From a phage, in assembly GCA_012551655.1 (NCBI GenBank), contig GCA_012551655.1_3034.1: DNA of 33,627 nt. One strand, given 5' to 3'. Shown one piece after another: positions 5,643-29,049 of the stretch (position 1 is the first letter of the stretch; each line of letters begins with the position of its first letter). The notes beneath the pieces were generated by a model. That model did not search any database. It saw only the letters and a program-made list of their open reading frames with translations, and was not told the DNA's origin. The position numbers and the translations under genes are program-made.

Positions 5643-6761
5643 ATGGAAAAATTTATGGCAGAGTTTGGACAAGGATATGTCCAAACGCCATTTTTATCGG
5701 AAAGCAATTCAGTAAGATATAAAATAAGTATAGCGGGTTCTTGCTCGCTTTCTACTGCAGAAGGACCATACGTTAAATTTCAGGATAATCCTGTTGGAAG
5801 TCAAACATTTAGCGCAGGACTTCATTTAAGAGTTTTTGACCCTTCTACAGGAGCATTAGTTGATAGTAAGTCATATGCTTTTTCGACTTCAAATGATACT
5901 ACATCAGCTGCTTTTGTTAGTTTCATGAATTCTTTTTCAAACAACAGACTTGTTGCTATATTAACCAGTGGAAAGGTTAATTTTCCTCCTGAGGTAGTAT
6001 CTTGGCTAAGAGCCGCGGGAACGTCTGCTTTTCCATCTGATTCTATATTGTCAAGATTTGACGTATCATATGCTGCCTTTTATACTTCTTCTAAAAGAGC
6101 TATTGCATTAGAACATGTTAAACTAAGTAATAGAAAAAGCACAGATGACTATCAAACTATTTTAGATGTTGTATTTGATAGTTTAGAAGACGTTGGAGCT
6201 ACAGGATTTCCTAAAAGAACATACGAAAGCGTTGAGCAATTTATGTCAGCGGTTGGTGGAACTAATAACGAAATTGCACGTTTACCAACTTCATCCGCGA
6301 TAAGTAAACTCTCTGATTATAATTTAATTCCTGGCGATGTTCTTTATCTTAAAGCACAGCTATATGCTGATGCCGATTTACTTGCGCTTGGAACTACAAA
6401 TATATCTATCCGTTTTTATGATGAATCGAATGGATATATTTCTTCAACACATGCTGAGTTTACTGGACAAGCTGGGTCATGGGAATTAAAGGAAGATTAT
6501 GTAGTTATTCCAGAAAATGCAGTAGGATTTACGATATATGCACAAAGAACTGCCCAAGCAGGTCAAGGAGGCATGAGAAATTTAAGCTTTTCTGAAGTAT
6601 CAAGAAATGGCGGCATTTCAAAACCTGCTGAATTTGGCGTCAACGGTATTCGCGTTAATTATGTCTGTGAATCCGCTTCGCCTCCAGATATAATGGTACT
6701 TCCTACACAAGCATCGTCTAAAACTGGTAAAGTGTTTGGGCAAGAATTTAGAGAAGTTTAA
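5643..6761 (+). CDS. 35: Long tail fiber hinge connector gp35 (372 aa)
   Basis: 372-aa ORF as in T4 gp35; SD agagg before ATG; position between 34 and 36. Confidence 0.9.
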   Translation: MEKFMAEFGQGYVQTPFLSESNSVRYKISIAGSCSLSTAEGPYVKFQDNPVGSQTFSAGLHLRVFDPSTGALVDSKSYAFSTSNDTTSAAFVSFMNSFSNNRLVAILTSGKVNFPPEVVSWLRAAGTSAFPSDSILSRFDVSYAAFYTSSKRAIALEHVKLSNRKSTDDYQTILDVVFDSLEDVGATGFPKRTYESVEQFMSAVGGTNNEIARLPTSSAISKLSDYNLIPGDVLYLKAQLYADADLLALGTTNISIRFYDESNGYISSTHAEFTGQAGSWELKEDYVVIPENAVGFTIYAQRTAQAGQGGMRNLSFSEVSRNGGISKPAEFGVNGIRVNYVCESASPPDIMVLPTQASSKTGKVFGQEFREV

Positions 6762-15335: not shown

Positions 15336-15365
15336 TATAGTACCATGGAATGCTTTGGTTGTAAA
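15336..15365 (-). promoter_or_regulatory. T4-type early promoter
   Basis: GTTTAC (15365-15360), 18-bp spacer, TACTAT (15341-15336), conserved leader tatcaactactga. Confidence 0.5.
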
Positions 15366-15374
15366 CCGTTTTGT

Positions 15375-15417
15375 GAAAAAAAAAATTTAAATAAAAAAGG
15401 GAGAGCCGAGGCTCTCC
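15375..15417 (-). terminator. Rho-independent terminator (minus strand) downstream of 52 and the 49-aa ORF
   Basis: Minus-strand GGGAGAGCC-(uc)-GGCUCUCCC stem followed by UUUUUUAUUUAAAUUUUUUUUUU. Confidence 0.7.
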
Positions 15418-15423
15418 CTAAAA

Positions 15424-15573: not shown

Positions 15574-16898
15574 TTGATTTCCTCTAAATCTTTGGTGTAT
15601 TCTGTAACTACATCAGTAGTTTTCCAATATTCGTTTTCTTCTTTTTTAGCTTTAGCTTCTTCAGCAAGTTTCTTCGCTTCATCGGAAGTCATATGAAAAA
15701 TATTCATTCCAACTAGTTTATCAACATAAGAAGAATACATATCGATTTTCGAAAGTTCTTCGGTCAGTTCTTTACGAGTTTTACCCTGTACAACAATTTC
15801 ACCTGAAATTACTTTCTTAATGAAATGTGCCTTGGCAAAGGCTAAACGAAAAGCAGATTCAGTTTCTTTAATTTTGTTATCAATTCGTTTTTGGACATAA
15901 GTTTTACGAACTTCAACAAAGTCTTTAATTAAATCAACTACGTTATCGTAAACTTGTAGTTTTCCTTTCTCATTAATAACCGTAATATTCTGAGAACGAC
16001 GCTCAATCAACCCGAAGTCTTTCATAATTTTTGCATGACGTTCTTCTTCATTATCGCTCAAAGAATATTCTTTGCGGAATTTAACTTTGAATCCAAAACC
16101 ATGCTCACCACAAGCATCATCCCATGTAATGAAGCCTTTATCTTCAAGTGGGTCTAAGATTTTACTCACATAAGTTTCACGATCATACTTATACGGAATC
16201 TCAGTGATATGCATTTGAGTTCGTGAAGTAAACTTATATGTTCCACGAATTTCATATTGCCCATCAATTTCAACGACTTCACCGCGAAATTCTGGGAATT
16301 CTACCTTCGGTTTAGTTACTTTCTTTCCTTGAAGAGCTTGCAGTACAGCTTTCTTAACAGAAGAAACACTATGAGGAAGAATGTAAGTTGCATAACCAGT
16401 TGCAATACCGGAAACGCCATTAAGAAGAACAGTAGGAATAATAGGCAAATAGAAAGCAGGCGGAATGTGTTCTTTATCTTGATGTACCGGAGCATATTCA
16501 GTATCTTTATATACGTTATAGAAATTTTTACTTACACGAGCAAAAATATAACGACTTGCTGCTGCTTTTTGAACGGTACGAGAACCAAAGTTTCCTTGAC
16601 CATCTAACAGAGGAAAGTTATTATTCCAAGTATTAGCCATCAAAGCACCTGCATCTTGTGCAGAGTTTTCGCCATGGTGATATCCAAGGTCTGCTACACC
16701 ACCTGCAATAGAAGCGAGTTTGTGAAACTTATCTTTATTTCCTCGTGCCAAATCAAGAGCTCGAGCAATAACAAATCGTTGAACTGGCTTAAATCCATCA
16801 ATCATATTTGGAATGGCACGATTTTCAACCGTGTACATAGCATAAGCCAATGCTTCATTATCAATGATACTTTTTAAATCGCGATTATTCAGTTGCAT
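15570..16898 (-). CDS. 52: DNA topoisomerase II medium subunit gp52 (GyrA-like, 442 aa)
   Basis: 442 aa as T4 gp52; AAASRYIF active-site-Tyr-like motif; position downstream of ac/stp and upstream of motA. Confidence 0.9.
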   Translation of the reverse strand: MQLNNRDLKSIIDNEALAYAMYTVENRAIPNMIDGFKPVQRFVIARALDLARGNKDKFHKLASIAGGVADLGYHHGENSAQDAGALMANTWNNNFPLLDGQGNFGSRTVQKAAASRYIFARVSKNFYNVYKDTEYAPVHQDKEHIPPAFYLPIIPTVLLNGVSGIATGYATYILPHSVSSVKKAVLQALQGKKVTKPKVEFPEFRGEVVEIDGQYEIRGTYKFTSRTQMHITEIPYKYDRETYVSKILDPLEDKGFITWDDACGEHGFGFKVKFRKEYSLSDNEEERHAKIMKDFGLIERRSQNITVINEKGKLQVYDNVVDLIKDFVEVRKTYVQKRIDNKIKETESAFRLAFAKAHFIKKVISGEIVVQGKTRKELTEELSKIDMYSSYVDKLVGMNIFHMTSDEAKKLAEEAKAKKEENEYWKTTDVVTEYTKDLEEIK

Positions 16899-18616: not shown

Positions 18617-18644
18617 TTTCTGTTCCTCCGTAGTTGATAGGGTA

Positions 18645-18674
18645 ATAGTACCACGGAAGAACAGTCTTGTAAAC
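18645..18674 (-). promoter_or_regulatory. T4-type early promoter
   Basis: GTTTAC (18674-18669), 18 bp, TACTAT (18650-18645), leader tatcaactacggagga. Confidence 0.5.
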
Positions 18675-26383: not shown

Positions 26384-26809
26384 TTATTCCTTAAAGTGTG
26401 CTTTCAACATCTGATACAAGGACCATGCCTGTTCATTATTTTCAATAGTAACTTTCATGACCGGGAATTCTGTGAAATCTTCTATTTGTTCTTGCTCTTT
26501 CTCTTCCTGCTCTTGCTCTTCAGCTGCCTGGTATGGATTTTCAACTTCATCAAAGAACCCAGCTTCGCTAGTAGAAAGCCAGATAAAGTTTTCGTCAAGG
26601 ATATCACCATGTGTTGCATATCCAACTGTGCCAGTAGATGTCACAATTTTAGTAGGACGACCAAGATGGTCAACATCTAAAATTTTAAAAGGATGCATAC
26701 CTAAACGGCGCGCATAGATTCCGTTATCAGTATGATCTTTAATAAAATTTTCTTGAGCTTGTTTATTTTTAAATTGATACCATTTATTAACTTCAAATTT
26801 AATAGCCAT
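26384..26809 (-). CDS. Hypothetical 141-aa protein (size and position of T4 goF)
   Basis: 141 aa, acidic [12 protein letters not shown] tract; assignment by size and synteny only. Confidence 0.55.
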
Positions 26810-27024
26810 TAATAAGTTTCCTTCCAGTAAGTTGTGCCATCTTCAGTAATTTCACGAAATACACCGTAAATTGGTTGTTTATCACCAACCTTTTCATACA
26901 CATAAACCGAAGTCAAGTGAGTAAACTTAACGGTATGTTCTTTTTGAACTACTACCAAATCTGGATCGAATAGTACATCTTCAAATTCGTCATTAGTGCA
27001 ATTCTGAACAATTTTACGTTTCAT
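26809..27024 (-). CDS. Hypothetical 71-aa protein (size and position of T4 cef)
   Basis: 71 aa; stop overlaps downstream ATG by 1 nt; assignment by size and synteny only. Confidence 0.5.
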
Positions 27025-27037
27025 TACAATTTCCTCA

Positions 27038-27307
27038 TTAATTGAACAGTGGAGCGATGCGTTTCAGAAGAGTAGCAGCACCTTTAGCGAATTTTACATC
27101 ATGAAAAACAGTTTCTTCTTCCGTTACAACACGAGCTTTAATGTTTTCACAATCCCAATTTTTGCGAACAATCTTCAAAAGCTGCAGTAAATCTTTACAT
27201 TCAGCAATATCGATAACACATCCACGAGAATCTTCCATTATCGCACGATAACCGTAAGCCATACCATAATCATTGAAAGATTGCTCGATGATAATTAAAT
27301 TTTCCAT
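27038..27307 (-). CDS. Hypothetical 89-aa protein
   Basis: Track ORF starts at TTG; ATG at 27307 with GGAGA SD after promoter leader. Confidence 0.55.
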   Translation of the reverse strand: MENLIIIEQSFNDYGMAYGYRAIMEDSRGCVIDIAECKDLLQLLKIVRKNWDCENIKARVVTEEETVFHDVKFAKGAATLLKRIAPLFN

Positions 27308-27331
27308 TTTATTCTCCAAGTTGTTTTCTGT

Positions 27332-27374
27332 ATCAGTAGTTGATATTGATATAGTACCATAATCAACTACTGAT
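27332..27374 (-). promoter_or_regulatory. Early-promoter-like element: -10 TACTAT flanked by a perfect 13-bp inverted repeat (no GTTTAC -35)
   Basis: atcagtagttgat (27332-27344) and atcaactactgat (27362-27374) flank the -10 at 27351-27356; conserved leader present. Confidence 0.4.
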
Positions 27375-27404
27375 GTATATAGTTTTATGAAAAAATTTTA
27401 AACT

Positions 27405-27896
27405 TTATGCATAGCGAGCTTTGCTATAGTGTTTAATCCAACTTTCAGGAATGACTTTGTATGTTCCTAAAAATACCGCGTTGTATAACTTAACGCCATC
27501 TTCTACCCATTGATCAGTAATGTATGCACACATAGCGCGAGTACGGTTAACAACACCTTCCTCACCTTCAGTAAATTCAAACTCATAAGGAGCAACGAAC
27601 TTAATAGCCTGACCGAGTTTCCACTTAAAGTCTACACCTACATGCGAAGTATCAATCGTTTCAATTCCTTTAGCGGGAACAGCTTTCAAAAACGCAGGCT
27701 CAAGAAATTTCCATCGAACATAACCAAACTGAGGTTTAGACATTCCATCTTTAGGAATGATACGCACTTTTACTTCAGAATCTTCATCTTTAACACCATG
27801 TTTAAGCTGAATGCTTACGACTTCAACCAATTTTCCTGCTGCTTTAGAACGGGATTTATCAGATACACGAGCAATTTCACCGATATTAATATTCAT
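27405..27896 (-). CDS. MotB-like protein (163 aa; assignment by size and position)
   Basis: 163 aa vs 162 for T4 MotB, preceded by an early promoter; C-terminal ~40 aa paralogous to the next ORF. Confidence 0.55.
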   Translation of the reverse strand: MNINIGEIARVSDKSRSKAAGKLVEVVSIQLKHGVKDEDSEVKVRIIPKDGMSKPQFGYVRWKFLEPAFLKAVPAKGIETIDTSHVGVDFKWKLGQAIKFVAPYEFEFTEGEEGVVNRTRAMCAYITDQWVEDGVKLYNAVFLGTYKVIPESWIKHYSKARYA

Positions 27897-27940
27897 AATT
27901 ATCTCTCACTTGTTAAAAAGATTTTATACTCCGCAGGACC

Positions 27941-27970
27941 ATTATACTCTGGTCCCAAGAGTTTGTAAAC
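27941..27970 (-). promoter_or_regulatory. T4-type early promoter for the MotB-like gene
   Basis: GTTTAC (27970-27965), 18 bp, TATAAT (27946-27941). Confidence 0.55.
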
Positions 27971-28470
27971 TAGCTTACACGAACATTAATCACTGCGCTG
28001 CGAGGAACTACAGAGTACTCTCCAGCATGAACTACGTTCAGAAGTTCAACACCATCTTCAATCCACTGATCAGTTACCCAACCGCCAATCGGATTCGCGA
28101 ATGGACGACGAATATAAACTGCCTTACACAACAAATCAGTCGGGTCTTCAATTTTTTCAACTGGTGTTACATACATAGAAACTAAATCCATATCAATATG
28201 GGATTTTTCTTGTTCTTCTTTTTCAATTTCTGTCAATAAATTGAAATCTTCTTCATAGATGATGAATGATGATACCCTTCCATAATAGTTTCTAATTTCC
28301 ATGTACACTGTACCAATGAGAATTCCGCTATTAACACTAATAACAGTAAAAGGATATCCGCCAGTTGTACCAAGAAGTTCCCAAAACTTGCTATCAGTCG
28401 TATTCGACATTGTCTGGAAATCAATTTCAGATGGTTTTTTCATTTGATACGTAGTATTAATTTTAATCAT
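27970..28470 (-). CDS. Hypothetical 166-aa protein, C-terminal domain paralogous to the MotB-like ORF
   Basis: ATG with AAAGGAAA SD; C-terminus GWVTDQWIEDGVELLNVVHAGEYSVVP vs YITDQWVEDGVKLYNAVFLGTYKVIP in the neighbour. Confidence 0.55.
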   Translation of the reverse strand: MIKINTTYQMKKPSEIDFQTMSNTTDSKFWELLGTTGGYPFTVISVNSGILIGTVYMEIRNYYGRVSSFIIYEEDFNLLTEIEKEEQEKSHIDMDLVSMYVTPVEKIEDPTDLLCKAVYIRRPFANPIGGWVTDQWIEDGVELLNVVHAGEYSVVPRSAVINVRVS

Positions 28471-28479
28471 AATTTTCCT

Positions 28480-28992
28480 TTAATCTAAGGTAATAAAGCC
28501 TTTTAATTCGGCATGCGATTTGCGAAACATTACTTGATGCCCACCAATGATAACTTGATCATCTGGCACTTCATAAATCGCAATGTACATTCCACGATCT
28601 TTTAAGTCTTCACGCTCTTCTCGAGTAAACCATCTCATTATATCATATTCACTAGCGAAAGCAAAATGATATAATGCAATAAACCACAATGGAATATAAT
28701 TTTCAATTCGTGAATAATCTTTATTCCATTTAGTTTTAATAGCATCATTAGCATTTTCAACTAATAACTTATCATCGTGCGGAATAGGAATACTTTCATG
28801 ACTTTCATAATTATCGCTATGATGATGAAATGACGATGAATTAATACCGCAAAATTTTAGCCAAGTTCGAGTTTTCATAGAATCAAATCCACGATAAGGA
28901 GTTGATTGAACACATAACTCTTGCCTAATTTTCATTATACCACTATCATCATTTAATGCGCTAAACGATGATTCAACACGATAAATTTTCAT
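28480..28992 (-). CDS. Hypothetical 170-aa protein
   Basis: Track ORF 28480..29031 trimmed to ATG at 28992 after SD GAGGA and promoter leader: MKIYRVESSFSALNDDSG... Confidence 0.55.
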   Translation of the reverse strand: MKIYRVESSFSALNDDSGIMKIRQELCVQSTPYRGFDSMKTRTWLKFCGINSSSFHHHSDNYESHESIPIPHDDKLLVENANDAIKTKWNKDYSRIENYIPLWFIALYHFAFASEYDIMRWFTREEREDLKDRGMYIAIYEVPDDQVIIGGHQVMFRKSHAELKGFITLD

Positions 28993-29019
28993 TTTATTAT
29001 CCTCAGTAGCTATGGTGTT

Positions 29020-29049
29020 ATAATACCACAACTGACCGAGGAAGTAAAC
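29020..29049 (-). promoter_or_regulatory. T4-type early promoter
   Basis: GTTTAC (29049-29044), 18 bp, TATTAT (29025-29020). Confidence 0.55.

Follow-up and report, generated by a model that had tools for sequence, protein, structure and literature searches.

The 43-bp quasi-palindrome at positions 27332-27374 of the window (the whole 33,627-nt stretch of phage DNA analysed here) surrounds the -10 element of what is, judging from its sequence, a family-typical T4-type early promoter on the minus strand downstream of motB, and comparison with other phages provides sequence evidence that the stem-loop at this motB-to-cef promoter is maintained by selection. The site matches the PeSL (promoter-early stem-loop) kind of element published for T4-like phages. 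On balance, we consider it probable that the promoter is read by host sigma-70, that it is built into a stem-loop of the PeSL type, and that the hairpin delimits the motB message at its 3' end.

Over the 1.1 kb surrounding the site, the sequence matches Escherichia phage AR1 (Tequatrovirus, a close relative of T4) with 100% identity, and the list of open reading frames together with the AR1 annotation gives the T4 gene order on the minus strand: dexA, motB.2, motB.1, motB, ar1_010, cef, and goF. The palindrome lies within the 97 nt that separate the stop codon of motB from the start codon of ar1_010, and the coding (minus) strand reads aagtttaaaattttttcataaaacTATACA-TCAGTAGTTGATTATGG-TACTAT-atcaat-ATCAACTACTGAT-acagaaaacaactt-GGAG-aataaa-ATG. 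The product of ar1_010 has no Pfam match. T4 has lost this gene by an out-of-frame deletion of 208 bp between two AAAATT repeats, which left an 11-codon remnant (T4 locus L003, ~2040-2060) and whose endpoints are inside ar1_010, not between two promoter cassettes; because of this deletion, the T4 promoter directly precedes cef. A replication origin at the site was also considered and rejected, the ‘ori type 2 repeat’ of phage Kha5h being inside motB and T4 oriA being at 16763. The features of the region, from motB to cef in the direction of transcription, are the following:

27405-27896, minus strand: motB, the upstream gene (open reading frame list and AR1 annotation)
27405..27407, minus strand: motB stop codon, the entry point of putative read-through transcripts (open reading frame list and AR1 annotation)
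27380..27402, minus strand: A/T-rich, UP-element-like upstream region aagtttaaaattttttcataaaacta (from the sequence; 8.2 bits versus a training mean of 11.6)
27374..27379, minus strand: -35 hexamer TATACA, 17 bp from the -10 (4.4 bits versus a family mean of 9.1)
27332..27374, not stranded: whole 43-bp quasi-palindrome, centred at 27353 (promoter position -9), equivalent to 6582-6624 of T4 NC_000866
27362..27374, minus strand: upstream arm ATCAGTAGTTGAT (minus-strand reading), -30 to -18, in the spacer
27357..27359, minus strand: TGG, an extended -10 (TGn) common to the family promoters
27347..27359, minus strand: inner stem-loop TGGTA-CTA-TATCA, with five pairs including one G.U and a 3-nt loop (RNA and DNA folds)
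27351..27356, minus strand: -10 hexamer TACTAT, in the apical part of the hairpin, fitting the PST/T4 consensus TAYWAT
27332..27344, minus strand: downstream arm ATCAACTACTGAT, at +1 to +13, which is the conserved start-of-transcript sequence
27314..27317, minus strand: GGAG, the Shine-Dalgarno sequence of ar1_010, +28 to +31
27305-27307, minus strand: ATG of ar1_010
27038..27307, minus strand: ar1_010, an 89-aa open reading frame (phrog_3720), the first gene served by the predicted promoter
26809-27024, minus strand: cef, followed by goF, downstream of ar1_010

A pattern search of the window retrieved ten promoter-like sites before genes, all on the minus strand (29048, 27969, 27379, 23678, 19179, 18673, 15365, 15035, 12585, and 1718). 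When the nine others were used to train a weight matrix, the held-out site at 27379 scored 41.5 bits and ranked 8 of 67,118 positions, the best non-promoter position having 6.3 bits, which bears out the initial annotation of this site as a promoter variant. Its -10, TACTAT, is on the minus strand (27356..27351), inside the gap and flanked by the two arms as that annotation had it. The downstream part of the site scores 13.9 bits (family mean 13.3) and carries the conserved start region ATCAACTAC(T/G)GA common to the promoters at 15365, 15035, 18673, and 19179. From the geometry of the promoter, transcription is predicted to start at the A at 27344, 7 nt past the -10. The initial annotation also proposed that the -35 had been replaced by an inverted copy of this conserved leader. 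It is true that the downstream arm coincides with the conserved start region and that the upstream arm is an inverted copy of it, but this copy takes up the spacer (-30 to -18) and shares with the -35 hexamer only the last base of the latter; the hexamer TATACA itself is present at the correct 17-bp distance (27379..27374) and matches the family TTTACA at five of six positions, with loss of the flanking G (aTATACA versus GTTTACA). The -35 is thus weakened, not replaced. Weak -35 hexamers recur in the orthologues, with TATACA in Dhakavirus and TGTACA in Mosigvirus and Muldoon.

The T4 msp1 cassette is homologous to the site over the whole stretch that begins with the A/T-rich upstream region and runs to the ATG, its upstream part being nearly identical, and differs from it in the -35 (the site has ATATACA versus GTTTACA), the spacer, and the six bases after the -10. 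The T4 ndd-region cassette is homologous over the part from the -10 to the ATG, and the GenBank records of both cassettes annotate -35 and -10 signals. All the elements described for T4 early promoters, Pe (Hinton 2010, PMC2988021), are recognizable here, namely the UP element, the -35, the TGn motif, the -10, and the conserved start-site region; the predicted promoter departs from that type by its weakened -35 (aTATACA versus GTTTACA). Because our literature search yielded neither start-site nor RNA 3'-end data for the site, nor a T4 early-promoter list covering motB-cef, we infer its activity in infected cells. A full-text literature search for the arm sequences retrieved only unrelated papers, and no promoter is annotated in M89919, the original record of T4.

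The arms of the palindrome (on the plus strand, ATCAGTAGTTGAT at 27332-27344 and ATCAACTACTGAT at 27362-27374) are perfect reverse complements of 13 bp separated by a 17-nt gap, exactly as initially annotated, and a repeat search extends them to 20 nt with 85% complementarity around a 3-nt centre. For gaps of up to 40 nt, no perfect inverted repeat in the window is longer. The second longest, of 11 bp with a 19-nt gap (CATTATATCAT/ATGATATAATG, 28636-28676), is within the coding region of motB.2. In 100 first-order Markov versions of the window, repeats of at least 13 bp occurred at a mean of 0.04 per window and only four simulations had any. The minus-strand RNA is predicted to fold into 18 pairs (13 bp and, past a 2x2 internal loop, another 5 bp closed by a 3-nt loop) with an energy of -20.2 kcal/mol, a z-score of -5.7 against shuffled sequences, and a position in the lowest 0.2% of the 56-nt segments of the window. 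Given this energy and the rarity of such repeats in the simulations, chance alone is an unlikely explanation, and the comparative data presented below rule it out. The stem is A/U-rich, with G-C in only four of the 13 outer-arm pairs. Both DNA strands can also fold (-11.5 and -10.9 kcal/mol, z about -5), with good pairing in the 13-bp arms alone and a large central loop. No Rfam family matched anywhere in the window, and there is no other full copy of the palindrome in the genome.

Absence from relatives, which the initial annotation named among the observations that would refute it, is not what we find: all 43 nt of the palindrome recur unchanged in 480 of 498 records of related phages, T4 included, whereas exact conservation of the flanking 43 nt is limited to 92 of 526 records on the downstream side and 218 of 498 on the upstream side. 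The upstream arm is invariant in all the Tequatrovirus sequences examined, which is noteworthy for a promoter spacer since the other family promoters have no spacer sequence in common. We inspected two variants, and in both the changes are confined to the central 17 nt, with the 13-bp arms intact: in one, the -10 becomes TATTAT, and in the other (phage ECO07P2, locus L022), ‘acaact’, as in the canonical cassette, replaces ‘atcaat’ after the -10. The latter change resembles the outcome of short-patch conversion by a paralogous promoter. As Tequatrovirus genomes are 95-100% identical at the site and closely related, they are not independent samples, so that this invariance is supportive rather than decisive.

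We located orthologous loci across the Straboviridae by Cef protein alignment (40 loci), and a MotB search of viral contigs gave five near-identical loci. The motB-to-cef promoter is embedded in a stem-loop with the -10 at its centre in Mosig-, Dhaka-, Kanagawa-, Winkler-, Karam-, and Gelderlandvirus, in Muldoon, and in others, although the arm sequences are unrelated between genera; most stems have 8-13 pairs, many of them 8, and some include G.T. Because all these promoters have 17-bp spacers, 27 distinct sequences could be aligned without gaps. When a symmetric 15-pair structure was applied to them, 72.6% of the cells were paired, versus 63.1 +/- 1.2 in shuffles, and changes on both sides of a pair were found in 56 cells, distributed over 8 of the 15 pairs, versus 19.7 +/- 4.7 in shuffles (none of 500 shuffles reached the observed value). 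Sliding the 3' partners by 1-3 columns as a control left 37-46% paired. The pairing register of AR1 and T4 is different, with the outer arms further apart, so that the covariation speaks for this class of structure and not for the exact 13 pairs seen here. Upstream of cef in Gaprivervirus (loci L020 = P479 and L062-L064), no family-type promoter was detectable, and a 9-pair stem-loop, TGATAGGG...CCCTATCA, stands right before the cef ribosome-binding site, which indicates that the stem-loop can persist without the promoter. A T4 promoter at ~146114 (locus L068) has a hairpin, GGGTAGTAGTGTGATACTATTACCC, that is the same as that of the cef promoter of Dhakavirus QL01 (locus L013, ~1245-1275); such sequence identity suggests that whole cassettes may move between loci and genera.

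The organization of the intergenic region closely follows that of PeSLs, with a stop codon, an A/T-rich stretch, an early promoter, a stem-loop, a Shine-Dalgarno sequence, and an ATG in succession. In the account that Arbiol et al. 2010 (PMC2839356) give of their positions, PeSL stem-loops are most commonly found between the -35 and -10 elements or overlapping the -10, and the stem-loop studied here has the second of these layouts. PeSLs were extended to the PST/T4 pair, with the consensus TTTACW-N17-TAYWAT given by Comeau et al. 2014 (PMC4122927), which the site fits with one mismatch, and phage PST has the identical 43-nt palindrome. PeSLs have also been linked to small open reading frames gained or lost among close relatives; just downstream of the site, ar1_010 occurs in AR1 and is deleted in T4, but the endpoints of this deletion are within that gene and not in two cassettes. 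Two differences are nonetheless apparent. The RB49/phi1 PeSL stems, as published, are G/C-rich, whereas this one is A/T-rich and unusually long (13 perfect plus 5 pairs), and, according to a figure legend (PMC4122927), the PST PeSL stems are placed just upstream of the promoter, whereas here the 3' arm corresponds to the first 13 bases of the transcript.

The arms occupy the sequence-free parts of the promoter, that is, the spacer and the first transcribed bases, so that a hairpin embedded in this way would automatically be centred on the -10. Transcripts for ar1_010, cef, and goF would start at about 27344 and, containing the downstream arm only, would stay unfolded. By contrast, read-through RNA coming from the motB promoter would contain both arms and would form the 18-pair hairpin 31 nt past the motB stop codon, where it would mark the end of the motB message. 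What the hairpin does in this RNA is presumably one of a few things, with attenuation of read-through, a processing site, and an exonuclease barrier as candidate roles, and the downstream genes would thereby depend mainly on their own promoter. Phage T7 early mRNA has intergenic RNase III processing hairpins between cistrons, of ~20 pairs, with an internal loop and no U-tract. The structure described here resembles them in its intergenic position, its internal loop, the absence of a U-tract, and its probable location in early polycistronic RNA, although, with 8-13 pairs, most of the orthologous stems fall short of the length typical for substrates of this nuclease.

The hairpin is not alone in its position. 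Significant hairpins across the -10 occur at 4 of the 10 promoters of the window (z -3.4 to -5.9) and, in a scan of T4 covering the genome outside 100-118.9 kb, at 8 of 23 matrix-defined promoters, the site studied here being the most extreme (z = -7.3). The promoter of motB itself (TTTACA-17-TATAAT) is also included in a stem-loop across the -10 (27928-27962, minus strand, z = -3.4), and phage SA20RB annotates this spot as promoter and terminator both. As read from the sequences, the 3' arm is the ribosome-binding site in six of nine other T4 hairpin promoters, including one before regB. Two promoters of the window illustrate the predicted consequence: the unpaired probability of the ribosome-binding site is 0.02 in read-through RNA versus 0.77 in the local RNA for the motB.2 promoter at 29048 (hairpin 29000-29042, minus strand), and 0.00 versus 0.79 for the promoter at 18673 (hairpin 18620-18664, minus strand). 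Hairpins that hide the ribosome-binding site, with an internal promoter, are found in T4 at soc, 49, and I-TevI. Gene e is of the same type, its ribosome-binding site being hidden by a hairpin in read-through RNA and its internal promoter giving an open RNA (Uzan and Miller 2010, PMC3014915). The likeness to these genes resides in the promoter placed inside the hairpin, such that foldable RNA comes from upstream only, and the promoters at 29048 and 18673 match this type. The classic cases, however, use late or middle promoters, and at our site the ribosome-binding site is outside the hairpin. Masking of the ribosome-binding site can accordingly be discarded there: the GGAG of ar1_010 lies 15 nt past the hairpin and is as accessible in one RNA as in the other, with unpaired probabilities of 0.27 in the read-through and 0.30 in the promoter-initiated RNA. 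Hairpins spanning the -10 hence appear, in these folding models, to be of two kinds, one hiding the ribosome-binding site in read-through RNA and the other, like the hairpin downstream of motB, leaving it free. As the latter leaves its ribosome-binding site unmasked, unlike its neighbours, its function in RNA is the least obvious of the set.

A broader proposal is that -10-centred stem-loops constitute a general device at about one-third of T4-type early promoters, by which the phage could handle two RNAs of one gene differently depending on their origin: read-through RNA folds, with its ribosome-binding site hidden or its conserved leader locked in a duplex, and local RNA stays open; at the site downstream of motB, the leader AUCAACUACUGAU would then be a recognition element for a nuclease, ribosomal protein S1, or another early-mRNA factor, hidden in the read-through duplex. 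We offer this idea tentatively and regard it as rather unlikely in this complete form.

Among the alternatives to a stem-loop kept for its function, a neutral by-product would have arisen by a strand switch that copied the start region, inverted, into the spacer, or by patchy conversion between cassettes, and would have persisted through close kinship. Templated correction of quasi-palindromes is a classic mutational mechanism of T4, the upstream arm reproduces exactly, in inverted form, a sequence that several other promoters also have, the patch in ECO07P2 was apparently exchanged with a paralogous cassette, and the high identity of Tequatrovirus genomes in this region also agrees with such a history. 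However, a copying accident explains the origin of the arm and not the maintenance of the structure, the palindrome is far less variable than its flanks (480/498 versus 92/526 and 218/498), and in distant genera the same promoter still has a stem-loop, with arms that differ and co-vary. These co-varying arms argue against a neutral scar, including the recombination scar between two promoter cassettes suggested in the initial annotation, and we hold an explanation of this kind to be distinctly improbable.

A rho-independent terminator for motB transcripts is clearly improbable too. It is what phage SA20RB annotates for the orthologous hairpin (‘rho-independent terminator; WebGeSTer’), and PeSL stem-loops are called terminators or attenuators in the papers that describe them, although a lowering of transcription from upstream is documented for a single RB49/phi1 stem-loop, which in the assay reported there matched the rrnB T1 terminator in its effect on downstream lacZ (PMC2839356). 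But what SA20RB gives is a prediction by software, which finds no support in the sequence: the stem is followed by ACAGAAAACAAC (ACAGAAAAC) and not by a U-tract, the sequence at this place is A-rich in every orthologue, and just 4 of the 13 pairs are G-C. The window contains a textbook terminator at 15398-15419 (minus strand), directly upstream of the early promoter at 15337-15365, and this is of a quite distinct build, with a G/C-rich stem, AGGGAGAGCC-TC-GGCTCTCCC, and then six T's. A terminator scan of 26900-28100 found no terminator-like sites. With an A/U-rich hairpin, no U-tract, and this empty scan, classical intrinsic termination is unlikely.

The palindrome might instead act as DNA, as a cruciform, as a strand hairpin tuning the opening of the -10 or promoter strength, or as a nuclease or recombination target. 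In all genera the centre of symmetry is on the -10, both DNA strands are foldable, with the energies given above, and a role in recombination is among the proposals made for PeSLs (PMC2839356). Nevertheless, the placement of the arms in sequence-free parts already centres the hairpin on the -10, Gaprivervirus keeps its stem-loop without a promoter, many orthologous stems have only eight pairs, some with G.T, and the identity of the 3' arm with the ribosome-binding site in most other hairpin promoters makes sense at the RNA level only. The cruciform-prone site mentioned in the initial annotation is unlikely, since pairing in DNA is restricted to the outer arms and the large loop that remains in the centre disfavours extrusion. 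Altogether, we consider a function in DNA very unlikely. The strand on which these hairpins fold best is compatible with the opposite, that is, an RNA function: G.U pairs favour the sense strand in the hairpins compared and, over all 23 T4 promoters, the mean difference between strands is -2.8 kcal/mol versus -1.2 kcal/mol in the genomic background (one-sided P = 0.05), an asymmetry that looked significant on hand-picked hairpins and is marginal against this genomic control. That the hairpin acts as RNA rather than DNA is, on these data, suggestive only. Finally, an operator, with a dimeric phage or host protein bound to two half-sites of 13 bp whose centres are 30 bp from each other and repressing the promoter, can draw on the perfect symmetry, the overlap with the promoter core, a half-site spacing of three helical turns, and the presence of one half-site at other early promoters, but is extremely doubtful, given that there is no other full copy of the palindrome in the genome and that other genera, with the same gene neighbours, have different arms and no conserved half-site, which makes a shared operator unlikely; MotB and H-NS, the ligands suggested in the initial annotation, are likewise not favoured, since arm sequences are not conserved across genera and MotB was reported to bind DNA without detectable sequence specificity (PMC6070864).

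Taken singly, the site matters little, as it adds one more example, from the phage lineage that has been studied best, to a type of cassette already published. Our analysis adds evidence of selection on such a cassette, near-invariant within Tequatrovirus and covarying across genera. If hairpins of the kind that does not mask the ribosome-binding site have a function in RNA, they would help to explain how the dozens of packed, very strong early promoters of T4 do not add up.
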